A DNA stretch of 64,000 nucleotides from Minisyncoccota bacterium (GCA_041664465.1 JBAYKP010000004.1:6876-70875), one strand, 5' to 3'. Numbered from the stretch's first letter, positions 32,796 to 48,669 are shown. Notes: generated by a model not told the origin, from the letters alone. Translations and numbers: made by a program.

Positions 32796-34118
32796 TCAGA
32801 AGAGAGAAATTATCGCTGCGACGGCGGTGATTCCCATAAGTATAGTGGCGGCCCAACCTAGGAATCTGGTAATGGGCTTATTTTTATATTCACCCATTAT
32901 TTTATGGCTACTACTTATTTTTACAATGAAGACGAGGATGACAGGAGCTACGATGCCATTAGCTATAGCCGAGTAGATGAGAGCTTTAATAGGGTCTATC
33001 CCTATGAAATTCAAGATTATTCCTATGATTATAGAAATAGCGATAATTGCATAGAAAGCGTGAGCCGTTTTATATTTGCGATAGAGACCTTCTTTCCATC
33101 CGAAACTTTCAGATATAGCATAAGCAGTAGAGCCAGCAAGGACCGGTATAGCAAGAAGTCCAGTCCCGATAATTCCAATAGCGAAGAGGAGAGTAGCGAA
33201 TGGTCCTGCAAGTGGTCTTAAGGTCAAGGCAGCATCAGATGCTGTACCAATATTTGTAATTCCATTTACAAAGAGAGTATTTGCACAAACTGCAATGATA
33301 AAGAACATCACAATATTTGATAAGAACATTCCAATCCAAATATCTAGACGCATTTCTTTTACTTCATTGTGAGTTGTTCCTTTACGTGAGGCTACTGTCT
33401 TCTTGCCATCTCGGATTTCTTCTTCTATCTCTTCCGACGTTTGCCAGAAAAAAAGATAAGGAGAAATAGTTGTTCCCAATATTCCTGTTATAAGTAGGAT
33501 TTGAGTTTTAGTAAATGTTATTTGTGGTATAAGTCCATCGTGAAGTAAGAGAGACCAATCCATATGAATTATTAATCCGGTAGCAATATATGCGAAAACT
33601 GCAATGACAAGCCACTTTAAATATTTGGTATATATTCTATATGGCACTATTATTTCCAATAATAATCCTGCCAATCCAGTGAAGATAACTAGAAAAATAA
33701 AAGAAGCTTTTGGAGCTAAGAGTTGTACGGCCTTTGCCATCGCCCCCAAGTCAGCCCCGATGTTTAATGTATTTGCAAAGAAAAGAAGAATAGTACAAAC
33801 ATATAGAATTTTTTTAGAAAAATTTCTTTTAATATTTGAAGCCAGTCCTCGCCCTGTGACCATCGCTATGCGGGCGCACATTTCTTGGACCGTAGCCACA
33901 AGAGGATAAACCCAAACCGCCATCCACAAGAGACTTGTGCCGTATTGAGCTCCTGCTTGAGAATATGTGGCGATACCAGCTGGGTCATCATCTGCTGCCC
34001 CTGTGATAACTCCAGGTCCAATCTTTTTCAAATACTCTGTTCTTTCTTGTAATAAAGATTCTTTTTCTTCTGCCAGGGTTACTTCTTCGTCTTTTGGTAT
34101 CATTTTTTCATCTTTCAT
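32796..34118 (-). CDS. mntH: NRAMP-family divalent metal (Mn2+/Fe2+) transporter
   Basis: 440 aa. NRAMP signature GPGVITGAADDDPAGIATYSQAGAQYG and about 11 transmembrane helices. Confidence 0.85.
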   Translation of the reverse strand: MKDEKMIPKDEEVTLAEEKESLLQERTEYLKKIGPGVITGAADDDPAGIATYSQAGAQYGTSLLWMAVWVYPLVATVQEMCARIAMVTGRGLASNIKRNFSKKILYVCTILLFFANTLNIGADLGAMAKAVQLLAPKASFIFLVIFTGLAGLLLEIIVPYRIYTKYLKWLVIAVFAYIATGLIIHMDWSLLLHDGLIPQITFTKTQILLITGILGTTISPYLFFWQTSEEIEEEIRDGKKTVASRKGTTHNEVKEMRLDIWIGMFLSNIVMFFIIAVCANTLFVNGITNIGTASDAALTLRPLAGPFATLLFAIGIIGTGLLAIPVLAGSTAYAISESFGWKEGLYRKYKTAHAFYAIIAISIIIGIILNFIGIDPIKALIYSAIANGIVAPVILVFIVKISSSHKIMGEYKNKPITRFLGWAATILMGITAVAAIISLF

Positions 34119-34171
34119 ATATTATATAATATACTATTTTAAAAGAATTTGGTACAATATAAGTACTACTT

Positions 34172-35713
34172 ATGGCGCTAAACAAACCAAACAAAATTCA
34201 GATAATAAAATATGCTCCACCACCACCAGATCTGCCGACGTTGGGTAGAGTAGATCCAAGTGATGTTGCTTTCATTGGCCGTACAAATTATGTTGCTTCT
34301 CTTGAAGAAAAGAGGTTTGTTTTCGGTATCAAGCGTATAGACCGTAGACGTCATATGTACATCATTGGTAAATCTGGAGTTGGTAAATCTAAACTTCAAG
34401 AATTAATGATTCGCCAAGATATTGCTTATGGGCATGGTGTCTGTATTATTGATCCACACGGTGAGCTCATAGAAGATATTTTGAATTTTATCCCAGAAGA
34501 AAGAATCGAAGACGTCTGCGTAATAGATCCGGGAGATATTGATTTCCCTTCATCCTTTAATCCGCTTGCCAATATTGACCCAACTTTCAAACATCAACTT
34601 ACTCAAGGGTTGATAGAAGTTCTCCGTAAGCAGTTCGGAGCGAACTGGACGCCACGTCTAGAGCACGTTTTTCGTTTTACGGTTCTTGCCTTGCTTGACT
34701 ATCCATTTGCGACAATGCGCGGAATGATAAGTATGCTAACTGATCGTAATTATCGTCAGAAAGTGGTGGAGTATATAGAAGACGACATGGTCAAAAGATT
34801 CTGGGCTATAGAATTCGCTGACTGGTCTGAGAAGTTTGATACGGACGCCATCATTCCTTTGGTGAACAAGCTTGGGCAATTCCTTTCTGATCCAATGCTC
34901 CGAAATATTTTCGGACAGAAAGAAAATAAAATAGATCTAGAACAAATAATGAATGAGCAGAAGATTCTGATGATTAATCTTTCTAAGGGTAAGATTGGTG
35001 AAGAGAACTCATCTTTCTTTGGAGCGATGTTCCTTACCAAGATCAAGCAGGCTGGTATGGCTCGTGCCAAGCTTGAGCCGAAAGATCGTGCGGACTTTTA
35101 TGTTTATGTGGATGAGTTCCAAAACATTGTGACAGATACATTTGAGAACATTCTTTCAGAGGCTCGTAAGTATGGATTGAACCTCATTATCGCTCACCAG
35201 TATATAGCGCAGTTATTACCGAAAGTTCAGCAAGCTGTCCTTGGTAATGTGGGCTCCATAGTGACATTCCGTGTTGGAGGTGATGATGCTACGAAGTTGA
35301 AGCCCGAGTTCGCACCAGTCTTTGATGTGAAAGATATGATTAATCTTGGAGTTGGAGAATTTTATATTAAGATGACGATTGATGGAGAAAGTTATGATCC
35401 GTTTTCAGGAGAGACATTGAAAGTTCTTCCCGCGACACATCCTTCTTATAGGCAAAGAGTTATAGAAGCTTCACGTCGCAAATATTCTATCCCTGCTGGT
35501 GACGCTCAGCGTTTGATAGCCGAAGAAGAAGCCACTATCATCCGTAGTGCTCAAGAAAAGGCTGCAATCACTGGCAAGAAAGGAAAAAGTGAAGAATCTA
35601 ATGAAGAAGAGGAAAACAATAAAGAAGAAAATGATGAAATAGAAAATAAAGAAGAACAAAAAAGCAAACCAAAACCTAAAAAAGAAGAAAAAGGCGGCGA
35701 GCCATTAATCTAA
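34172..35713 (+). CDS. Soluble P-loop ATPase, TraD/VirD4 (type IV coupling protein)-like, of the FtsK/HerA superfamily
   Basis: 513 aa. Walker A IIGKSGVGKS, Walker B YVYVDEFQN, a T4CP-like AHQYIAQL motif, and an acidic low-complexity C-terminus. No transmembrane helix. Confidence 0.5.
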   Translation: MALNKPNKIQIIKYAPPPPDLPTLGRVDPSDVAFIGRTNYVASLEEKRFVFGIKRIDRRRHMYIIGKSGVGKSKLQELMIRQDIAYGHGVCIIDPHGELIEDILNFIPEERIEDVCVIDPGDIDFPSSFNPLANIDPTFKHQLTQGLIEVLRKQFGANWTPRLEHVFRFTVLALLDYPFATMRGMISMLTDRNYRQKVVEYIEDDMVKRFWAIEFADWSEKFDTDAIIPLVNKLGQFLSDPMLRNIFGQKENKIDLEQIMNEQKILMINLSKGKIGEENSSFFGAMFLTKIKQAGMARAKLEPKDRADFYVYVDEFQNIVTDTFENILSEARKYGLNLIIAHQYIAQLLPKVQQAVLGNVGSIVTFRVGGDDATKLKPEFAPVFDVKDMINLGVGEFYIKMTIDGESYDPFSGETLKVLPATHPSYRQRVIEASRRKYSIPAGDAQRLIAEEEATIIRSAQEKAAITGKKGKSEESNEEEENNKEENDEIENKEEQKSKPKPKKEEKGGEPLI

Positions 35714-35791
35714 TTAACTTTGTTTACAAGGCAATCCAGAGTGGTATAATTATAATACAAGGTCGCAAAGCTTAATTTCTCTATATATTTT

Positions 35792-36097
35792 ATGGTATTT
35801 ATCTATACAACATGTAAAAATGTAGAAGAGGCACAAAAGCTAGGAGGACTTATTATAAGTAAGAAAATAGCTGCTTGTGTGGATTTCTGGCCTATATCTT
35901 CTTGTTATAATTGGAAGGGAAGTCTTCAATGTATATCTCAGGCGATGCTTTTGATCACTACTTTTGAATCAAAATTAGAAGAAGTGAATCAAATCATTTC
36001 AGAGAACCATACTTATAGTACTCCTCTTATCGCCGGAGTGGATGTCCGTCGCATTAATCACCCTTATAAAGAATGGATGATGGAAGAAATAGTTTAA
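35792..36097 (+). CDS. cutA: Divalent-cation tolerance protein CutA
   Basis: 101 aa. IYTTCKNVEEAQKLGGLIISKKIAACVDFWPISSCYNWKGSL...HPYKEW matches the CutA1 family. Confidence 0.75.
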   Translation: MVFIYTTCKNVEEAQKLGGLIISKKIAACVDFWPISSCYNWKGSLQCISQAMLLITTFESKLEEVNQIISENHTYSTPLIAGVDVRRINHPYKEWMMEEIV

Positions 36098-36107
36098 TGC
36101 CTTTTAT

Positions 36108-36527
36108 ATGAATTCAAAGAAAATTTTAATTTTTGGAGTATTTGATGGTATACATGATGGCCATATGCATTTTGTAAATGAAGCTAGAACGCATGGCGAT
36201 CACCTCGTAGCTGTCGTGGCGCGTGATGCCGTGGTAGAAGAACTGAAAGGTGTATTACCAAAAGAGAATGAAGTAGAGAGAATAAAAGAACTTTTAAAAA
36301 TTCCCGAGATAGACCTCGTGCTTTTAGGAGATCCACAGATTGGTACTTATAATGTGCTCAAAGAAGTGAAGCCCGATATTGTATTCCTTGGATATGACCA
36401 AGAGGCACTTAAAAAAGATTTAGATAAGAAAATAAAAAGTGGTATTTTAAAAGATATAGAGATTGTCATTGGCACATCGCACAAAGGAGAAGAATTGCAC
36501 TCATCAATTTTGAAAAAGAAAAAATAA
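36108..36527 (+). CDS. Cytidylyltransferase-like nucleotidyltransferase (HxGH motif)
   Basis: 139 aa. ILIFGVFDGIHDGHMHFVNEAR carries the (T/H)xGH nucleotidyltransferase signature. Confidence 0.55.
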   Translation: MNSKKILIFGVFDGIHDGHMHFVNEARTHGDHLVAVVARDAVVEELKGVLPKENEVERIKELLKIPEIDLVLLGDPQIGTYNVLKEVKPDIVFLGYDQEALKKDLDKKIKSGILKDIEIVIGTSHKGEELHSSILKKKK

Positions 36528-36577: not shown

Positions 36578-38854
36578 ATGGAAAATGAAATTCCACACAA
36601 TCGTGACATCACTTATTTTGGTAAGACGAACTTTCGTAGTAGCAATACTATTTTCGGTATAAAAAGGAAAGACCGTCGTCAGCATATGTATATACTTGGT
36701 AAGTCAGGTACTGGTAAGTCTGTTCTTCTCTCTAATCTTATTTCTCAAAATATCCAAAATGGCGAAGGCGTCTGCGTCGTAGACCCTCACGGAGAAACAG
36801 TAGAAGAGATTCTCCATCTCATTCCTGATCACAGAGTTAAAGATGTTATATACTTCAATCCAGCTGATACGGACTTTCATATTGGCTTCAATGTCATTCA
36901 GCTTGATGATCCAAAGTACAAGCACTTGGTGGCTTCGGGGCTTATGGGGATTTTCACGAAGATTTGGGCGAATGCGTGGAGTTCAAGAATGGAATACATC
37001 CTAAACAATGCAATTCTTGCTTTGCTTGATACACCTGGTACAACGCTTCTCGGAATTCCTCGTCTTCTAGTGGACAAGGATTATCGTCAGATGATAATTG
37101 GCAATCTGAAAGATCCAGTAGTCAAAGCTTTCTGGGTCCACGAGTATGAGCAATGGCGTGAACAGTTCCGAAATGAAGCCATCGCTCCGATTCAGAACAA
37201 AGTAGGACAGTTCCTTTCTACTTCTATTATTCGTAATGTTGTCGGTCAGCCGAAATCCACTATTGATATTTTTGACATAATGAATAGTGGGAAAATTTTC
37301 CTTGTGAACGTTTCAAAGGGGCGTATCGGTGAAGACAATTCGGCTCTCCTCGGTGGTATGATTATTACCAAGATTCAGCTTGCTGCGATGGAGCGTGTAC
37401 GTATACCTGAGGACGAACGTAAAGACTTTTATTTATATGTCGATGAATTCCAGAACTTTGCTACAGATGCGTTTGCCAATATTCTTTCTGAGGCTCGCAA
37501 ATACCGTTTGAATCTTACTGTCGCCCACCAGTATACTGCTCAGCTTGAGAATAAAGATGGCTCGAAAGTTCGTGATGCTGTCTTTGGCAACGTCGGCACC
37601 ATGATCATTTTTCGTGTAGGAGGAGATGATGCTGAATTTTTAGAGAAAGAATTTGAGCCTGAATTCACAGCACTAGATTTAGTGAATTTACCGAACTATC
37701 ATATTTATATAAAGCTTATGATTGATGGAGTGACGAGTCGTCCATTCTCTGCGGTGACGTTGCCGCCACTTAAAGTTGATTTATCACTAGGAGTTAAAGA
37801 TAAAATTATAGAATCTTCTAGGAAGCTTTATACTCGTCCTCGTAAAGAAGTTGAAGATGAGATATCACGATGGAGTGGAATGCTTCAAGTGGGAGATGGT
37901 GAAGCGAAATATAAGGCTGATTGTTCAAACTGTGGAAAAGTTACGATGGTGCCTTTTGAGCCTCAGGAGGGTAGACCAGTTTACTGTAAAGAATGTATGT
38001 TTAAAATTAAGAGTGGAGAATTGAAGCCTGAGACTGGATTCATCGCTTCACGTTCATCTCGTCAAGAAGAGAAAGTTTCTACTGAACCTTTGGCTGCACT
38101 TGGTATAGAATTCGGGGTGACAGATAAGAATTTTAGAGTTTCCAAGAATCAAGAACAGACAAAAAATTCTGCCCCGATCAATATGGATACGAATCATCAC
38201 AATGGCCATATAAAATCTAATAATCTAGGAGGAAATATTAGTAACAATAATAATTATAAAAATAATTTTGTAAAACAAGAAAGGAGGCATACAGGTCCTT
38301 CTCCACTTTTGAAAGGATTATTGCAGAAAATAGGTATAAATAATGACAAAAAAGTAGATGAAGCTCCTAAAATAGAAGCCGTCGAAATTAAGAAAGAAGT
38401 ACCAGCTCCGATGTCTTTAGAATCTTTAAAAGCAAAAACAAATGAAGAAATTAAAAAGGATTTTGTAATACCAGCCAAGGAAGCATCCGAAGAAAAGAAA
38501 GCATCTTTGAAAGATTTGCTTGAAAAGACAGCAAATCATAATTTCCCAAAGGAAAGTCATTTGGAGGAAAAAGAAAAGGCTCAGGTTGCTTCGCAACCTG
38601 AGCCAGAAGTTAAAATTCCTGAGCCAGAAGTCATTTCACCAGTTCCTCAAAAAGAAGACAAGGTAGAGGCTGCTCCACAGGAAAATCTTTTTGAGAGGTC
38701 CTCGGATGAGGGAGGACAAGGTGCCAGACCATCTCAAAAAGACATTCCTGTTTCGCAACCAAAGCCCGAAACAAAATCAGATGCTGATTCTTGGCAGAAA
38801 CGTAAGATAAAGAAAGAAGTTCCAGAAGATGTGCTTCGTAAAGTATTAGAATAA
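36578..38854 (+). CDS. Soluble TraD/VirD4-like P-loop ATPase (paralog of 34172-35713) with a C-terminal CxxC...CxxC zinc ribbon and a long disordered tail
   Basis: 758 aa. Walker A ILGKSGTGKS, Walker B LYVDEFQN and AHQYTAQL, then CSNCGKVTMVPFEPQEGRPVYCKEC, then a low-complexity K/E/P-rich tail with PEPEV repeats. Confidence 0.5.
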   Translation: MENEIPHNRDITYFGKTNFRSSNTIFGIKRKDRRQHMYILGKSGTGKSVLLSNLISQNIQNGEGVCVVDPHGETVEEILHLIPDHRVKDVIYFNPADTDFHIGFNVIQLDDPKYKHLVASGLMGIFTKIWANAWSSRMEYILNNAILALLDTPGTTLLGIPRLLVDKDYRQMIIGNLKDPVVKAFWVHEYEQWREQFRNEAIAPIQNKVGQFLSTSIIRNVVGQPKSTIDIFDIMNSGKIFLVNVSKGRIGEDNSALLGGMIITKIQLAAMERVRIPEDERKDFYLYVDEFQNFATDAFANILSEARKYRLNLTVAHQYTAQLENKDGSKVRDAVFGNVGTMIIFRVGGDDAEFLEKEFEPEFTALDLVNLPNYHIYIKLMIDGVTSRPFSAVTLPPLKVDLSLGVKDKIIESSRKLYTRPRKEVEDEISRWSGMLQVGDGEAKYKADCSNCGKVTMVPFEPQEGRPVYCKECMFKIKSGELKPETGFIASRSSRQEEKVSTEPLAALGIEFGVTDKNFRVSKNQEQTKNSAPINMDTNHHNGHIKSNNLGGNISNNNNYKNNFVKQERRHTGPSPLLKGLLQKIGINNDKKVDEAPKIEAVEIKKEVPAPMSLESLKAKTNEEIKKDFVIPAKEASEEKKASLKDLLEKTANHNFPKESHLEEKEKAQVASQPEPEVKIPEPEVISPVPQKEDKVEAAPQENLFERSSDEGGQGARPSQKDIPVSQPKPETKSDADSWQKRKIKKEVPEDVLRKVLE

Positions 38855-40394: not shown

Positions 40395-42065
40395 ATGAAA
40401 AATGAGGCTAAGACCTGCCAAAATTGCAAGAAAGACTTCATTATAGAGGCTGACGATTTTTCTTTCTATGAGAAGATCAAAGTCCCAGCACCGACTTGGT
40501 GCCCAGAGTGTAGACAGCAACGCCGATATGCATGGAGAAATGAAAGGACTCTATACAGAAGAAATTGTGATTTGTGTGGTAAGAGTACCGTGACTATTTA
40601 TTCTCCTAATAAAGATTTGAAAGTTTATTGCTTAAAATGCTGGTGGGGAGATGGTTGGGATCCTGCCAATTATGGCAAAGATTTTGATTTTTCAAGACCT
40701 TTTTTTGAGCAGTTCCATGAATTTCAAAAGGAAGTTCCTAGAATGGCACTTTTAAGTAAAAATAGTATCAATTCCGACTATACAAATCATTCAGGAGATA
40801 ATAAGAATACTTATCTATCTTTCTGTTGTTTTAATACGGAAGATGTTTTTTACTCAACATGGATATTTAAGTCAAGAAATTGTATGGATTCTAGTTATAT
40901 TTATGATAGTGGAGAAAGATTGTATGAATCTATTGATTCTCGTAAGGCATATCATTGTCAATATGGAATTCTTTTAGAAAATTGCGTTGATTGTTTATAT
41001 TGTTATGATTGTCATAATTGCAATGATTGTTTTATGTCTTCAAATTTGAGGAACAAAAGTAATGTATTTAAAAATGAACAATATTCTCGTGAAGCATATT
41101 TAGAAAAATTAAAAGAATATAATTTGAGTTCATATTTAGATCGTGAAAAATTATATAAGGAATTCCTAGATTTGATGGTTAATAATTCTATCCATCGTTA
41201 TGTGATAAGTGAACGTAATGTCAATTCTACTGGAAATCTAATATTTAATAGCAAAAATGCGATTAATTGTTTTGACGCTGAAACATTAGAAGATGTAAAA
41301 AGATCTTACGCAGTTCTTGACATGAAGGACTCTATAGATATATATCACGCTGGAACAAAATCAGAACTTTGTTATGAATGCCATGGTTGCACTCGTATTT
41401 ATAATGTAAAATTTTCACATCTTTGTTATGACAATAGAGATATCTCGTACTGTGACTCATGCCAAAACTCTCAAAATCTTTTTGGGTGTATTTCTGTCAA
41501 AAAGGGTGAATATATGATTTTAAATAAAAAGTATTCAAAAGAAGAATATCTAGAATTAAAAGAAAAGATAATAGAACATATGAAGAAGGGAGGGGAGTAT
41601 GGAGAATTCTTCCCACCATCTATTTCTCCTGTTTGTTATAATGAAACTCAAGGCAATTATTATATGCCAGAAACTAGAGATGCAATCTTGGCTCGTGGTT
41701 GGCGATGGGAAGATAAAGTCCTGGGTACTTTTGGTAAAGAAACAATACAGCCTGAAGATATTCCTGACAATATAGAAGATATAGATGATTCTATTACAAA
41801 AGAGATATTGAAGTGTATAACTTGCACGAAGAATTATAATATTACCCCAGATGAATTAACTTTTTATAAAAGAGAAAATATTCCTATCCCTAAAAATTGC
41901 CCGGAATGTAGATACAAGAAGCGATTTGCCCTACGCTTACCTCGCAGACTCTGGCACAGAAGCTGTATGCACGAAGGCTGTAATAATGAATTCGAGACTA
42001 GCTATGCACCAGAAAGACCGGAGATAGTGTATTGTGAAAAGTGCTATCAGCAAGCAATTTTATAA
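40395..42065 (+). CDS. Cysteine-rich protein with N- and C-terminal zinc-ribbon-like modules (paralog 1)
   Basis: 556 aa. The N-terminal CQNCKKDFIIEADDFSFYEKIKVPAPTWCPECR...CDLCGK...YCLKCW is mirrored by the C-terminal CITCTKNY...FYKRENIPIPKNCPECR...YCEKCYQQ. The central region has a 5-residue Cys/Asn periodicity (NCVDCLYCYDCHNCNDC). Confidence 0.4.
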   Translation: MKNEAKTCQNCKKDFIIEADDFSFYEKIKVPAPTWCPECRQQRRYAWRNERTLYRRNCDLCGKSTVTIYSPNKDLKVYCLKCWWGDGWDPANYGKDFDFSRPFFEQFHEFQKEVPRMALLSKNSINSDYTNHSGDNKNTYLSFCCFNTEDVFYSTWIFKSRNCMDSSYIYDSGERLYESIDSRKAYHCQYGILLENCVDCLYCYDCHNCNDCFMSSNLRNKSNVFKNEQYSREAYLEKLKEYNLSSYLDREKLYKEFLDLMVNNSIHRYVISERNVNSTGNLIFNSKNAINCFDAETLEDVKRSYAVLDMKDSIDIYHAGTKSELCYECHGCTRIYNVKFSHLCYDNRDISYCDSCQNSQNLFGCISVKKGEYMILNKKYSKEEYLELKEKIIEHMKKGGEYGEFFPPSISPVCYNETQGNYYMPETRDAILARGWRWEDKVLGTFGKETIQPEDIPDNIEDIDDSITKEILKCITCTKNYNITPDELTFYKRENIPIPKNCPECRYKKRFALRLPRRLWHRSCMHEGCNNEFETSYAPERPEIVYCEKCYQQAIL

Positions 42066-42119
42066 ATGTAACAGATTTCTGCGATCGTCGAAAAGTGTTA
42101 TGATGAATAAATAATATAT

Positions 42120-43796
42120 ATGGAACAAAAATCAGCAACAAAGAATTGCCAGAATTGTAAGAAAGACTTCATTATAGAGCCAGATGATTTTTCATTTTAT
42201 GAGAAGATGCAGGTGCCTGTACCCAATGTTTGCCCTGATTGTCGTTTTAAAATGCGCGCTATGTGGAGAAATGAAATGACTCTTTATTCAGGTCAAAAAT
42301 GTGAAATGTGTAAGAAAAGTATTATTACTATATATAATCCAAAATCAAAATATATCAAATATTGTCATGATTGTTTTTATTCTGAGAAATGGAGCCCAAA
42401 AGATTATGCAAAATCGTACGATAAATCAAGACCATTTTTTGACCAAATGAAAGAATTATTGATAGAAGTTCCAAAAGACTGCTTAGGTATTTCTACTGGT
42501 GATGGCCAAAATATTAATAGTGAATATATTAATATGGCTTCTGGCTGTAAAAATTGTTATCTTGTTTTTAATACTAGCCCCGCTGAAGAGTTGCTTTATT
42601 CAAGAGGAATTAAAAATGGGACTTTTTCTTCAGATATTTATTTTGGAGTGAAATTTGAAAATTGCTATGACTGTGTTAGTGTCCAAGAATCAGCTAATGT
42701 TTTCTGGGGGCAAAATATTATAGGTTGTGTTAATTCATATTTTATTTTAAACGGTAGTGGTCTTACTAATTGTTTTGGATGTGTAAATTTAAGGAATAAA
42801 AGTAATTGCTGGTTTAATGAGCAACTTACTCCCGAAGAATATAAAAAAAGATTAAAAGAAGTTATGGGGAGTTATTCTAAAATTATTGAAGCTCGTAAAA
42901 AGTTTGAAGAATTTTGTTTACAGCACCCCCGCAGAGAAAATAATAATCTGAAGACTATTGATTGTGTAGGAGATTATTTAACTGAATGTAAAAATGTGGT
43001 GAATTCATTTGAGGTTGCAAAGTCTGAAGATTGTCGATATTTATTTTCATCTAAAGTGATTAAAGATTCTTTGGGGACTATAGGATTTGGAACGAATTCT
43101 GAAAGACTTTTAGAGGTTATCGCTACAGGATACTCTAGTAATGTGATAGGTTCATACTGGGCAGAAAATTCAAGCGACATAATGTATTCATTTGATCTAA
43201 GGAATTGTAATGATTGCATAGGTTGTGATGCACTTAGGAATGGTAAATATGCCATTTTTAATAAAGAGTATTCAAAGGAAGAATATGAAGAATTAAAAGC
43301 TCATATTATAAAAGAGCTTACAGAATTAGGTATACATGGGTTGATGATGCCGGTTACGATAGCTCCATTTGCTTATAATGAATCTATAGCACAAGATAAT
43401 TTTCCTTTGACCAAAGAGGAAGCCCTAGCACAAGGTTTCAGATGGGAAGATGACATACAGATGACTAAAAGCAAGGAAACCTTACAGCCAAATGAGATAG
43501 AGGATAATATAAAAGATGTGAAAGATTCTATAACGAGTGAGATATTAAAATGTATAACTTGTGAAAGAAATTATAAAATTACAGAACAAGAGCTTTTATT
43601 TTATAGAAAGATGAATTTACCAATTCCTCGTCAATGTTTCTTTTGTCGTCACCAAGATAGAATAAAAAGGCGAGGCCCATACAAATTCTGGGACCGTAAA
43701 TGTGATCATTGTGGTAAGGATATAAAGACAAATTATGCACCAGAAAGAAAAGAAATAATATACTGCGAAAAGTGTTATCAGCAAGAAGTAATTTAG
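42120..43796 (+). CDS. Cysteine-rich protein with N- and C-terminal zinc-ribbon-like modules (paralog 2)
   Basis: 558 aa. Same architecture as paralog 1 (CQNCKKDFIIEPDDFSFYEKMQVPVPNVCPDCR ... CITCERNYKITEQELLFYRKMNLPIPRQCFFCR ... YCEKCYQQ). Confidence 0.4.
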   Translation: MEQKSATKNCQNCKKDFIIEPDDFSFYEKMQVPVPNVCPDCRFKMRAMWRNEMTLYSGQKCEMCKKSIITIYNPKSKYIKYCHDCFYSEKWSPKDYAKSYDKSRPFFDQMKELLIEVPKDCLGISTGDGQNINSEYINMASGCKNCYLVFNTSPAEELLYSRGIKNGTFSSDIYFGVKFENCYDCVSVQESANVFWGQNIIGCVNSYFILNGSGLTNCFGCVNLRNKSNCWFNEQLTPEEYKKRLKEVMGSYSKIIEARKKFEEFCLQHPRRENNNLKTIDCVGDYLTECKNVVNSFEVAKSEDCRYLFSSKVIKDSLGTIGFGTNSERLLEVIATGYSSNVIGSYWAENSSDIMYSFDLRNCNDCIGCDALRNGKYAIFNKEYSKEEYEELKAHIIKELTELGIHGLMMPVTIAPFAYNESIAQDNFPLTKEEALAQGFRWEDDIQMTKSKETLQPNEIEDNIKDVKDSITSEILKCITCERNYKITEQELLFYRKMNLPIPRQCFFCRHQDRIKRRGPYKFWDRKCDHCGKDIKTNYAPERKEIIYCEKCYQQEVI

Positions 43797-44632: not shown

Positions 44633-46144
44633 TTATTTTAATATTTTAATATCAGCACCGATGGAGTTTAATCTATCGGCGATTTCTTCGTATCCACGAT
44701 TGATCATATAGACATTGCGGAGGATTGAAGTGCCATTGGCCCCGAGCATACCGATGAGGATTATCATTGCAGGGCGGAGGGCTGGAGGGCAGACTATCTG
44801 GGCGCCTTTGAGTGGCGTCCCGCCCTCTATATAGACTCTGTGTGGATCGGCGAGAGTGATGCTAGCGCCAAGTCTATTTAATTCTGTGAAGTATATTGCA
44901 CGATTCTCATAGACCCAGTCGTGGATCATAGTCTGACCTTTGGCACGAATTGCAATAGGGACAAAGAATGGAAGATTATCCATATTAAGTCCTGGGTAAG
45001 GATTGGCGTGGATTTTATCTCCTAAGGCTTTTAATTTAGAAGGGAAGATGTGCAAGTCCACAAGATTAGTTCGTCCATTATATGATTTATAAACTTTAGA
45101 TATTTTATATTTAAGCCCCATCCTTTTTAATTTCTCTAATTCAAGAGAAAGGAAGTCAATAGGGCAGCGGGTTATTTTAAGTTCTGAGTCAGTGGCAATT
45201 GCTGCAGAGATGAACATCATAGATTCAATAGGGTCCTCACTATTGGTATATTCAATATCCATATCTATATCTTTGATTCCGTGTACTATTAGAGTAGAAG
45301 TGCCTATACCCTCTATCTTCACTCCAAGCTTTTCTAAGAAGAAGCAGATTTCTTGGACCATATAGTTGGCACTTGCGAATTTGATAGTAGTCGTACCGTT
45401 TATCCTTGCCACAGCGGTAAGAATATTCTCACAAGCTGTATCTCCAGCTTCGTACATGACAATGTTTCCTGGTTTTAATTTTTTACTTTCTATTTTGTAT
45501 TCATTGTTTGTAGTTTTAATTTTAACACCGAGGTCTTCTAGTGCATAAGTATGTGCTGATATTGTTCTTTTGCCGAGTTTGCATCCAGAAGCATGAGGAA
45601 TAGAAAATGTTGGTAAAAGGTGAATAAGCGGGCCGATAATCATTACGACAGAGCGAGTCTTCACTGCAGATTCTACATTTATTTTATCTAAGGTAAAAGT
45701 TGCTGGAGGAGTGACAATGAGAGAATTATTTGCAATCCATTTAATAGAGACGCCAATACTTTCAAGAATTTCGATGACCCTGTAGACTTCTTCGATGCGG
45801 GCGATGCCGTGGAGAGTAGTCTTGCCACGATTGAGTAGGGATGCACAGAGAAGTCCAACGGCGCCATTTTTGGAAAAGTTTGTATTGATAGTGCCATGTA
45901 GTTTTTTACCGCCAACAATTTGAAAGTCTATAGAATTATTGATAGAGACTATCTGGTGCTCTAATACTTCGCTTATTTTGCCAAGTATCTCAGTACTGAA
46001 ATTCTGCTCTCCTTTCTCCATTCGTGCAACTGCCGATTGGGAGGTCTCAAGCTCTTTCGCGAAAGCGTCTTGAGTTAGACCTCGACGTTCTCTTAATTCC
46101 TTTATAAAATAGCCTATTTTCTGTTGTTCTGTCTCTTTTTTCAT
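44633..46144 (-). CDS. murA: UDP-N-acetylglucosamine 1-carboxyvinyltransferase with an N-terminal XRE-type HTH domain fusion
   Basis: 503 aa. Residues 10-65 form an HTH_3 (IKELRERRGLTQDAFAKELETSQSAVARMEKG). The remainder is MurA (IVGGKKLHGTINTNFSKNGAVGLLCASLL, active-site Cys in HASGCKLGKRTI). Confidence 0.8.
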   Translation of the reverse strand: MKKETEQQKIGYFIKELRERRGLTQDAFAKELETSQSAVARMEKGEQNFSTEILGKISEVLEHQIVSINNSIDFQIVGGKKLHGTINTNFSKNGAVGLLCASLLNRGKTTLHGIARIEEVYRVIEILESIGVSIKWIANNSLIVTPPATFTLDKINVESAVKTRSVVMIIGPLIHLLPTFSIPHASGCKLGKRTISAHTYALEDLGVKIKTTNNEYKIESKKLKPGNIVMYEAGDTACENILTAVARINGTTTIKFASANYMVQEICFFLEKLGVKIEGIGTSTLIVHGIKDIDMDIEYTNSEDPIESMMFISAAIATDSELKITRCPIDFLSLELEKLKRMGLKYKISKVYKSYNGRTNLVDLHIFPSKLKALGDKIHANPYPGLNMDNLPFFVPIAIRAKGQTMIHDWVYENRAIYFTELNRLGASITLADPHRVYIEGGTPLKGAQIVCPPALRPAMIILIGMLGANGTSILRNVYMINRGYEEIADRLNSIGADIKILK

Positions 46145-47248: not shown

Positions 47249-47352
47249 TTAAGAATTAATAATTACGAATTAAACTAAAAAATTACAATTAAGAAACGGC
47301 CGTTTCTTAATTGTAAAACGACTAAATTTACAAATTTAGTCGTTTTAGTTTG

Positions 47353-47434
47353 TGCCGGAGGGGAGACTTGAACTCCCAAGTCTTGCGACACGCGATTTTG
47401 AGTCGCGCATGGTTACCAATTTCATCACTCCGGC
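47353..47434 (-). tRNA. tRNA-Leu (anticodon CAA), with long variable arm
   Basis: The reverse complement is GCCGGAGTGATGAAATTGGTAACCATGCGCGACTCAAAATCGCGTGTCGCAAGACTTGGGAGTTCAAGTCTCCCCTCCGGCA. Anticodon stem CGCGA/TCGCG with loop CTCAAAA, and a type-II variable arm. Confidence 0.85.
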
Positions 47435-47490
47435 AATGCTTGTATTCTAACAGAAAAGCCAGAAAAATCAATTTTGAAATTATTCTATAT

Positions 47491-48669
47491 ATGGCGTATA
47501 GTAGATGTATGATTCAGAAACAAAATGATTCCCTTTCATACATAGAAATTTCGAAGGAAAATTTGATACACAATATCAAGCAATTTCGAGGTTTGCTGAA
47601 AAATAAAGAAAATTTAGGAGGCAAGACCAAGATTGCTGTGGTGGTGAAGTCCAATGCTTATGGGCATGGGGATATGGAAGTGGCGAAGATTACGAGTCCT
47701 TATGTGGATTACTTTCAAGTAGATAGTATAGAAGAGGGAGAGAGAGTGAGGGAAGTTACAAAAAAGCCAATTTTAATATTTGGTTACACAAACGATGATG
47801 GAATAAAGAGGGCTATAAAAATAAATGCGATTTTAGCTTGCTTTGATTTCGTACATTTACTTAAGATTAATCACATGGGAGGGGTTTTGAAGAAAAAAGT
47901 AAAAGTCCATCTAGCCATAGATTCTTATCTTGGCCGCGAGGGGATAATGCCTTCGCAAGTAGAGAATATAATTAAAGAAATAAAAAATTTAAAGAATATA
48001 ATTCTAGATGGTGTGTATTCGCATTTTGCAAACATTGAAGATACGATGAATTCCACACATGCAAACAGACAGATAGATACTTACCACAAATGCGTGGAAA
48101 TATTTAGGGAAAATGGCTATGAAAAAATAAATACCCACATCTCTGCTACTTCCGGAATTCTCGTATATGAGAAAGGAGAAAATCTGCACAGTATAGTCCG
48201 TCTTGGTATAGGACTTTATGGCTTGTGGCCAAGTGAGCATCTAGAATATTTGAATAAAAAGAAAATAAATTTGAAGCCAGTCATCAGGTGGGTAACGCAT
48301 GTCGCTCAAGTGAAAGTAATACCTGCCAACTATCCTATTGGTTATGGTCTTACTTATATTACAAAGAAAGCTACCAAGATAGCCGTAATACCCCAAGGTT
48401 ATGCCGATGGGCTTACTCGTCTGATGTCAAACAATGGAGAATTTTTAATCAGAGGTAAGAAGGCCAAGATACTTGGTAGAGTTGCAATGAATATGACAGT
48501 AGTAGATGTCTCAAATATTAAAGATGTAATACCAGAGGAAGAAGTGGTGATAATAGGTACTCAGAATAAGAGAGAGATTACAGTGGAAGATGTAGCTAAA
48601 AGAATGGATACTATAAACTATGAAGTAATTACTAAAATAAGTGCATTATTGCCAAGGGTTATTGTATAG
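47491..48669 (+). CDS. alr: Alanine racemase
   Basis: The PLP motif VVKSNAYGHG and the Alr C-terminal domain are present. The ORF-track start at 47350 overlaps tRNA-Leu, so the ATG at 47491 is preferred. Confidence 0.8.
   Translation: MAYSRCMIQKQNDSLSYIEISKENLIHNIKQFRGLLKNKENLGGKTKIAVVVKSNAYGHGDMEVAKITSPYVDYFQVDSIEEGERVREVTKKPILIFGYTNDDGIKRAIKINAILACFDFVHLLKINHMGGVLKKKVKVHLAIDSYLGREGIMPSQVENIIKEIKNLKNIILDGVYSHFANIEDTMNSTHANRQIDTYHKCVEIFRENGYEKINTHISATSGILVYEKGENLHSIVRLGIGLYGLWPSEHLEYLNKKKINLKPVIRWVTHVAQVKVIPANYPIGYGLTYITKKATKIAVIPQGYADGLTRLMSNNGEFLIRGKKAKILGRVAMNMTVVDVSNIKDVIPEEEVVIIGTQNKREITVEDVAKRMDTINYEVITKISALLPRVIV

Follow-up and report, generated by a model that had tools for sequence, protein, structure and literature searches.

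Cysteine-rich zinc-module proteins with a predicted beta-solenoid core and their VirD4-like ATPase neighbours in Patescibacteria

What kind of proteins are encoded by two adjacent cysteine-rich genes on a housekeeping chromosome stretch of a Minisyncoccota bacterium, and with which partners could they act? The genes, here denominated P1 and P2, are located on a stretch of 64,000 nucleotides (GCA_041664465.1, JBAYKP010000004.1:6876-70875; in the following the window). P1 occupies positions 40395..42065 (+), stop codon included, and encodes 556 amino acids (aa). P2 follows in tandem on the same strand at 42120..43796 (+) after a gap of 54 nt and encodes 558 aa. An initial annotation of the window, made from the sequence alone, had delimited both open reading frames (ORFs) exactly and had estimated the paralogs to be roughly 35–40% identical; the full-length value is 40% (BLASTP, E 7e-132).

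Both proteins share one architecture: a double zinc module (sites Zn1 and Zn2), solenoid A, solenoid B, an acidic linker and a second double zinc module (Zn3 and Zn4). The single parts are of known kinds, namely treble-clef zinc fingers, a beta-solenoid and, encoded in the neighbourhood, a motor resembling type IV coupling proteins (T4CPs). What is new is the solenoid unit of ~130 aa, the Zn–solenoid–solenoid–Zn layout and the pairing with orphan T4CP-like ATPases, none of which is found in Pfam, NCBIfam, PDB or the searchable literature. A predicted cytoplasmic, Cys-filled beta-solenoid with 12-residue coils and double zinc fingers at both ends represents an architecture that neither Pfam nor PDB contains.

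Terminal zinc modules and the repetitive core

The modules of ~85 aa at the chain ends (P1: aa 1-88, 40395..40658 (+), and aa 469-556, 41799..42062 (+); P2: aa 1-91, 42120-42392 (+), and aa 473-558, 43536-43793 (+)) are each built from a CxxC-x24-CxxC finger, an Arg-rich helix and a CxxC-x17-CxxC finger. In P1 the spacing is C8-x2-C11-x24-C36-x2-C39 for Zn1, C58-x2-C61-x17-C79-x2-C82 for Zn2, C474-x2-C477-x24-C502-x2-C505 for Zn3 and C524-x4-C529-x17-C547-x2-C550 for Zn4. Thus, x24 recurs at both Zn1 and Zn3, and the x17 spacing is kept exactly by Zn2 of both proteins and by Zn4 of P2, with Zn4 of P1 having the form Cx4C-x17-CxxC. The N- and C-terminal modules of P1 are near-duplicates, as had been proposed: they share 38% identity (BLASTP, E 1e-21), and profile–profile comparison with HHalign gives a probability of 99.8% (E 1.3e-29). 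They had also been described as mirrored. This holds for the order of domains along the chain but not for orientation, since the modules are direct copies pointing in the same direction, one at each chain end.

All four Cys4 sites are present in P1 as well as in P2, and in an alignment of 53 sequences covering both orthologue series the 16 terminal cysteines are invariant and arranged in four CxxC...CxxC groups. Among 329 diverse members, which underlie all family-wide values given below, the cysteines of Zn1 (C8, C11, C36, C39) are conserved at 95–98% and those of Zn4 (C524, C529, C547, C550) at 97–100%. For Zn2 the values are 88% for C58 and ~61% for the other three residues; for Zn3 they are 98% for C474 and ~77% for the remaining three. 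From these 16 positions four zinc sites per chain are predicted, of the treble-clef Zn(Cys)4 type. Domains with the CxxC-x17-CxxC pattern in small proteins of M. mazei bind zinc according to inductively coupled plasma mass spectrometry (PMC12704099).

The sole library matches of the modules are zf_Tbcl (PF13451) and zf_Tbcl_2 (PF23477/TIGR04272). P1 reaches 20.4 bits with zf_Tbcl (E 5e-4), under the curated cut-off of 24 bits. With zf_Tbcl_2, P1 scores 22.1 bits (E 1.3e-4) and P2 21.2 bits (E 2.4e-4), both below the cut-offs for this CxxC-x17-CxxC domain (27 bits for PF23477 and 36 bits for TIGR04272). Matched one by one, 25 of 53 relatives hit zf_Tbcl at E<=0.01 and 34 of 53 hit zf_Tbcl_2, and some database members of the family already carry a precomputed PF13451 label. 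The terminal modules thus probably belong to catalogued domains, and the statement that the architecture could not be placed in any family holds for the core only. With both zf_Tbcl families the modules share the defining Cys spacings; the difference is that here both fingers are fused into one module of ~85 aa, which occurs twice around a core of 380 aa without family. LIM domains resemble the modules in having two consecutive treble-clef-type Zn(Cys)4 sites, and LIM proteins are the only PDB sequence matches (E 0.005-0.1). These LIM-like matches from sequence and profile searches of PDB concern the C-terminal module, spanning half of Zn3 together with Zn4, and are not significant; Pfam LIM gives E 0.046. 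Moreover, the LIM ligand pattern C-x2-C-x16-23-H-x2-C-x2-C-x2-C-x16-21-C-x2-(C/H/D), i.e. Cys2-His-Cys/Cys4 with a fixed 2-residue linker, is absent: the modules lack a His ligand and are spaced differently. LIM domains are protein-docking modules, and docking is a plausible functional analogy for the zinc modules described here.

Between the modules lies a core that arose by tandem duplication. Unit A of P1 (aa 114-243, 40734..41123 (+)) consists of ~8 coils of 12 residues followed by a cap motif and a helix, and unit B (aa 265-393, 41187..41573 (+)) is its homologue according to HHalign (probability 99.9%, E 1.9e-35), row stacking and conservation. The corresponding core of P2 comprises aa 117-397 (42468-43310 (+)). 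Each unit of ~130 aa ends with ...C-x2-C-x2-C-x3-L-R-N-x-x-Y-x-I-x-N-x-Q-Y-S-x-E-E-Y before a helix. In P1 this cap reads C-x2-C-x2-C212...LRNK...N-x-Q-Y-S-x-E-x-Y in unit A and FGC365...Y-x-I-x-N-K-x-Y-S-K-E-E-Y in unit B, each followed by its helix; in unit B the residues Y352, N377 and Y380 are conserved at >=95% of members.

P1 contains 35 Cys (6.3%) and 43 Asn (7.7%), for which the initial annotation had suggested a 5-residue period. This does not hold. Across the family Cys–Cys spacings are enriched 2.6–3.7x at lags 3, 6, 9, 12, 15 and 18 and depleted to 0.06–0.17x at all other lags (0.07x at lag 5), and the Asn autocorrelation peaks at lag 12. When the sequence is written in rows of 12, every third position is occupied by C, S, A, G or T in 70–100% over the ~8 rows of unit A. 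AlphaFold2 models (predicted template modelling score 0.84 for P1 and 0.81 for P2) are of high confidence in the zinc modules, the helices and the linker; in the repeat regions confidence is moderate, with predicted local distance difference test (pLDDT) values of 60-75, and few regular DSSP elements are assigned, in P2 isolated bridges every ~12 residues. As far as periodicity and modelling can show a fold class, the core is shown to consist of two narrow beta-solenoids with a coil of ~12 residues in which every third residue is small and points inward, and Asn ladders mark the turns. Because Cys is favoured at these inward positions, the chain acquires its Cys-periodic look without additional metal sites. 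With such a coil the string CxxCxxCxxCxxCxxC of P1 (C197, C200, C203, C206, C209 and C212; 40983..41030 (+)), i.e. the last ~1.5 coils of solenoid A, would form an interior ladder.

The pattern of conservation is in line with this arrangement. Only C212 and C365, the equivalent last cysteines of the two units, are near-invariant in the core (96% each); all other core cysteines are conserved at 4–87% and replaced by Ser, Gly, Ala or aliphatic residues. Within the run of P1 the family-wide values are 74% (C197), 24% (C200), 25% (C203), 81% (C206), 87% (C209) and 96% (C212). Among P1 orthologues 81–100% of these residues are kept, Ser being the usual substitute, and P2 orthologues have S, I/V/L, G and L at the corresponding positions. 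Since the positions swap with Ser, Gly and aliphatic residues, the core cysteines are probably buried packing positions and not metal ligands, and a fifth metal site at C206, C209, C212 or C365 is unlikely. The earlier suggestion of a metal-studded solenoid or beta-helix can be retained for the solenoid, with period 3/12, but not for the metal.

No match of the core was found in Pfam, NCBIfam, PADLOC or PDB sequences, even when the 53 members were scanned singly; PHROGs gave only a weak match to phrog_15341 (E 1e-4), and Foldseek against PDB no significant structural match (best E 1.7). Together with the failure to find any description of the family in the searchable literature this agrees with the initial view of an uncharacterised family. 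Among known repeat folds a close likeness is with the beetle antifreeze helix TmAFP (1EZG), whose coil has 12 residues with every third one inward; other antifreeze beta-helices compared were sbwAFP (1M8N) and the ryegrass ice-binding protein (3ULT). The solenoids of P1 and P2 share with the TmAFP type the 12-residue coils and the small or Cys residue at every third, inward position, but they have no Thr-x-Thr ladder, are not secreted and disulfide-bonded and show no significant structural match. Neither the 5-residue period with A(D/N)LXX of pentapeptide repeats was detected in the core, nor the [LIV]-[GAED]-x2-[STAV]-x pattern with 18-residue coils and Pfam Hexapep match of left-handed beta-helix proteins (hexapeptide-repeat transferases and gamma-carbonic anhydrases), nor conserved Cys ligands beyond the four terminal sites or profile matches as expected of Fe-S and multi-metal proteins.

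The linker of P1 (aa 401-468, 41595..41798 (+); pLDDT 86-96) is conserved, with the motifs GEFFP...SPF-x-YNET, RWED and GKETI-x-P. Its net charge is -10 in P1 and -7 in P2, at an overall isoelectric point (pI) of ~6.1-6.4. Neither a transmembrane (TM) segment nor a signal peptide was found in P1.

Family extent and paralog arrays

The family is large. In a set of 5.8 billion proteins P1 has >6,865 and P2 >4,665 relatives, the closest orthologue of P1 among the matches listed being 84% identical. Their database names are "hypothetical", missing or spurious zinc-ribbon labels. An exhaustive scan yielded 3,867 clusters at 50% identity (1,546 at E<=1e-30), nearly all of them 540-600 aa long and matched over the full length. 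At least 579 stretches of GTDB species genomes carry the family, and all those listed belong to Patescibacteria, covering Nomura-/Paceibacteria, Staskawicz-, Giovannoni-, Sung-, Lipton- and Abawacabacteria as well as Peregrini-/Peribacteria; the taxonomic labels were taken from record titles, and "Saccharibacteria" labels, which also occur, stem from automatically generated titles. One record labelled "Burkholderiales bacterium" (L047, JAMPXW010000002.1, 267 kb) has Paceibacteria-type content and synteny with four family copies, two ATPases and dnaJ, and probably represents a mis-binned or mislabelled metagenome-assembled genome. Two phage and viral collections contained only one match restricted to the zinc module and one fragment of 42 aa, and with this near-absence a phage origin of the family was rejected.

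For the analysis of gene neighbourhoods the best 80 of the at least 579 GTDB stretches were used, loci that are phylogenetically clustered. Family genes form tandem arrays on the same strand: 31 loci contain one copy and 23 two copies, and the largest arrays comprise 7, 9 and 11 copies in ~20 kb. P1 and P2 represent separate orthologue series, each with 65–88% identity. This separation is general, as 131 of 148 genes are nearer to a gene of another genome than to the paralog alongside (median identities 56.7% and 42.8%, respectively), and in one array (L016) the ten genes scored are 35–46% identical to each other. The arrays are therefore a fixed repertoire of ancient specialised lineages and not a rapidly diversifying arsenal. 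Of all regions the solenoids have least in common between the P1 and P2 lines. In the zinc modules and the linker 55–61% of positions are shared, whereas the solenoids have a common consensus at only 35% of positions, and 12–17% are conserved but different. Hence, zinc modules and linker are common to the paralogs, and the solenoids are kept within an orthologue line but diverge between paralogs.

Neighbouring ATPases and the candidate function

Upstream of P1 the window encodes two soluble VirD4-like P-loop ATPases, which are candidate partners of the family. The VirD4/TraD-like zinc-finger subtype (758 aa, 36578..38854 (+)) has the Walker A motif GKSGTGKS, the Walker B motif FYLYVDEF and a K/E/P-rich disordered tail, and matches TrwB_AAD_bind (PF10412; E 2.4e-14, 53.5 bits, cut-off 20.5) as well as, also above the Pfam cut-offs, PF12696 and PF02534 (TraG-D_C, T4SS-DNA_transf). 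Its zinc finger (aa 445-476, 37910-38005 (+)) is a zf_Tbcl_2 domain (PF23477: E 8.5e-14, 51.4 bits; TIGR04272: E 9e-15, 54.1 bits). The resemblance between this ribbon and those of P1 and P2, noticed already in the initial annotation, is confirmed at the level of the domain family, of which Zn2 and Zn4 are probable members. The second subtype (513 aa, 34172..35713 (+)) lacks the zinc finger, is recognised by Pfam and NCBIfam and recurs beside family genes and dnaJ in other genomes. NCBIfam equivalog scores of the ATPases are far under the cut-offs, and the match to CedD is weak. Across loci both Walker motifs (A: GKSGxGK[ST]; B: FYLYVDEF) are conserved, and after the disordered tail each subtype ends in its own way, with EVPEDVLRK[IV]LE in the zinc-finger form and E[EA]EP[LM]I in the other. 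In the window these conserved C-terminal peptides are EVPEDVLRKVLE (38816-38851 (+)) and ...GGEPLI (35696-35710 (+)); judged by their sequences they look like docking motifs.

Like VirD4, TraD and TrwB, these proteins are P-loop motors with Walker A/B motifs and TrwB/TraG domains. Unlike them they have no N-terminal membrane anchor (the maximum 19-residue hydropathy is <1.6 in 27 of 27 ATPases) and are not encoded beside virB4, and one subtype possesses the zinc finger and disordered tail; neither virB4 nor any other gene of a type IV secretion system (T4SS) was found in the 64-kb window. They belong to the "orphan" T4CP homologues of Patescibacteria, in which 5,713 VirD4-like T4CPs were counted, only 148 of them near virB4, and for which exaptation "cannot be ruled out" (PMC12102498).

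A form of the ATPase with 746-747 aa neighbours the family in loci of Peregrinibacteria, Peribacter and Abawacabacteria (L048 7187-9427, L069 4453-6696 and L072 15146-17389). Its N-terminal extension of ~330 aa matches no Pfam family and is probably the counterpart of the N-terminal region of phrog_5156. Relatives of the ATPase encoded by SPO1-like phages and by phage G are unannotated.

A functional link between P1/P2 and the upstream ATPase had been hinted at, and reciprocal gene-neighbourhood evidence supports it. After clustering of 1,274 ORFs the ATPase is the commonest non-family neighbour, with 25 genes in 20 of the 80 family loci. Assuming two T4CPs per ~1,000 genes ~2 would be expected (Poisson 1.5e-18, uncorrected for shared ancestry). 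Of the 25 genes 19 are located <=261 bp from a family gene on the same strand, several of them 2-5 bp apart or overlapping, and the adjacency is seen in loci of Paceibacteria, Peregrinibacteria, Peribacter and Abawacabacteria. In the reverse direction, 80 ATPase loci on metagenome contigs were taken as starting points, and 39 of them have a family gene as immediate neighbour; where flanks of >=2 kb on each side are available this applies to 18 of 30 loci (60%), and with >=4 kb to 8 of 11 (73%).

The wider surroundings are those of housekeeping genes. The window itself contains rpoB/C, dnaG, rpoD, aminoacyl-tRNA synthetase genes, tgt, uvrABC, ddl, murA/B, alr, ychF, leuS and murJ together with four tRNAs. 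In many Paceibacteria the gaps of the Hsp70 operon are filled by family genes (FAM) and both ATPases, in the order rps/rpoA/rpl - grpE - FAM - FAM - (winged-helix gene) - dnaK - zinc-finger ATPase - FAM ... rsmE - ATPase - dnaJ - FAM, and family genes also recur directly after the block rpsM-rpsK-rpsD-rpoA-rplQ-rplM-rpsI. Ca. Nomurabacteria GW2011_GWF2_35, the closest named relative, has its P1 orthologue (82% identity; L166, 9001-10671) between rpoC and dnaG, and in the window dnaG follows directly after rpoC with nothing inserted. This means that the gene is relocated from one highly expressed housekeeping operon to another. A small winged-helix gene related to PaaX_M/Cas2 (cluster c6 in 9 loci; e.g. 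L001, 14065-14604 (-)) is transcribed divergently between family genes and dnaK in Paceibacteria, and its product may be a regulator that replaces HrcA in the rearranged Hsp70 operon.

Taking these observations together we tentatively favour the following explanation over its competitors. P1 and P2, members of a Patescibacteria-wide family with a pseudo-symmetric chain, would be soluble cytoplasmic scaffold proteins. Their zinc modules would be the shared means of docking or of binding nucleic acids, and recognition specific to each paralog would be the task of the solenoid faces. They would act together with the soluble hexameric orphan VirD4/TraD-like ATPases encoded alongside, most plausibly as specificity adaptors, partner subunits or clients of the motor. 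The context could be the housekeeping handling of proteins or nucleoproteins, because in Paceibacteria the genes interleave with grpE-dnaK-dnaJ and adjoin ribosomal-protein and RNA-polymerase operons. Several points weigh against such a partnership. Gene adjacency is the sole link between the family and the ATPase; 60 of the 80 family loci have no ATPase within 10 kb, and the P1 orthologue of the closest named relative is also without a nearby ATPase. In the window an unrelated surface-protein gene is inserted between the zinc-finger ATPase and P1. Finally, the clustering of the 80 best-match loci means that the statistics are inflated by shared synteny.

In a more far-reaching version, to which we assign a low probability, the orphan ATPases and the ten or more ancient paralogs would constitute an undescribed phylum-specific, ATP-driven cytoplasmic machine with the solenoids as specificity subunits. 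It could be a hetero-oligomeric apparatus for the handling of proteins or nucleoproteins that is co-regulated with Hsp70, and the zinc modules would dock to the motor at its conserved C-terminal peptides or at its zinc finger.

Alternatively, and in our opinion with rather little likelihood, the proteins could be nucleic-acid-binding factors of information processing, with zinc modules gripping RNA or DNA, each solenoid having its own target and the ATPase being a secondary companion or a translocase. The zinc modules are indeed basic (net charges +2, +4 and +6, of which +2 and +4 are given for the N-terminal module of P1) and have the conserved helix motif CR-x2-RR-x3-RNE; genes of the family are found inside rpoB-rpoC-[gene]-dnaG-rpoD operons and after the ribosomal-protein block. 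The T4CP family includes DNA pumps, the ATPases match the TrwB "DNA-binding domain" and weakly CedD, and a stable ancient set of paralogs would suit site-specific recognition. However, the core showed no known fold of nucleic-acid-binding proteins, and to our knowledge beta-solenoids are not established as sequence-specific readers of nucleic acids. The overall pI and the strongly acidic linker do not fit well either, and the placement in housekeeping operons may reflect high expression only.

It is improbable that P1 and P2 are self-assembling structural proteins whose solenoids stack head-to-tail, as in bactofilin or curli, into hetero-polymeric cytoplasmic filaments with the end modules as joints and the ATPase as remodelling factor. 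With CsgA and bactofilins they share neither sequence similarity nor coil length and, unlike those, the solenoids are capped by conserved motifs and helices within a multidomain chain. A role as secreted T4SS substrates or effectors, recognised by the T4CP-like ATPase and acting on a host bacterium, appears slightly less credible still. Recruiting substrates is what T4CPs do, and it is common for effector families to be multi-copy, with genes next to that of the coupling protein. The arrays of up to 11 copies and the wide distribution of T4SS in Patescibacteria (PMC12102498) would agree with that. But the ATPases have no membrane anchor, virB4 is absent from the window and rare near T4CPs of the phylum, and orthologues conserved at 65–88% in ancient paralog lines differ from fast-evolving effectors. 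In addition, the genes reside in housekeeping operons, and the products have four predicted structural Zn sites and no signal peptide.

Very unlikely is a metal-studded core with extra Zn, Fe-S or other centres, or a thiol-redox or metal-buffering protein. The Cys content is extreme throughout the family (median 36 per chain, range 23-52), CxxCxxC strings close each solenoid unit, and genes of CutA1 and an Nramp transporter are located nearby in the window. On the other hand, apart from C212 and C365 the core cysteines are exchanged freely, both inside an orthologue group and from one group to the next. The strict x-x-small period, maintained over ~8 coils, agrees with packing in the interior, and no Fe-S, ferredoxin or radical-SAM profile matched; neither CutA (5 of 80 loci) nor Nramp is a conserved neighbour. 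An anti-phage or conflict system formed by ATPase and paralog array is hardly conceivable and was rejected on context and conservation: the ATPases match PADLOC mad8 (3e-17 and 1e-12), weakly HerA models, and the phage family phrog_5156, but the family itself has no PADLOC match, is absent from phage collections, occupies housekeeping positions and is conserved phylum-wide with slowly evolving paralogs.

Whatever the mechanism, the investment is considerable. A typical Patescibacteria genome has ~0.6-1 Mb, hence the ~19 kb that some Patescibacteria devote to tandem family genes correspond to roughly 2-3%. Such arrays in tiny genomes, together with long-conserved paralog lines, point to an important, lineage-defining function, and this function is blank in every database. 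At the same time the family provides, for the first time, a concrete candidate partner of the orphan VirD4-like coupling-protein homologues, which number in the thousands (PMC12102498), and the orphan-T4CP question becomes experimentally approachable.

Further genes of the window

The gene between the zinc-finger ATPase and P1 (38861-40261 (+)) encodes a surface-type protein that combines two Lamin-tail domains with a PKD domain and has a hydrophobic segment at the N-terminus, a TM segment at the C-terminus and a weak LPXTG-like match. As it neighbours the family in 1 of 80 loci it was rejected as conserved partner, and the same applies to CutA, the cytidylyltransferase-like gene, a methyltransferase and the HTH-MurA gene (1-5 of 80 loci each). 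The first ATPase gene is flanked by an Nramp metal transporter (-), CutA1 and a cytidylyltransferase-like gene (32796-36527), of which only CutA recurs. A scan for promoters and terminators gave sites no more numerous than in shuffled sequence.

Downstream of P2 a MurA-like enolpyruvyl transferase (44633-46144 (-); EPSP_synthase, 4e-40) carries an N-terminal XRE-type helix-turn-helix domain (HTH_3, aa 14-61, 1.6e-12), an unusual fusion of a DNA-binding domain with a cell-wall enzyme. Further downstream tRNA-Leu(CAA) (47352-47434 (-)) overlaps the TTG start of the alanine-racemase ORF (47350-48669 (+)); as the Pfam match begins at aa 67 of this ORF, the true start of Alr is located downstream.

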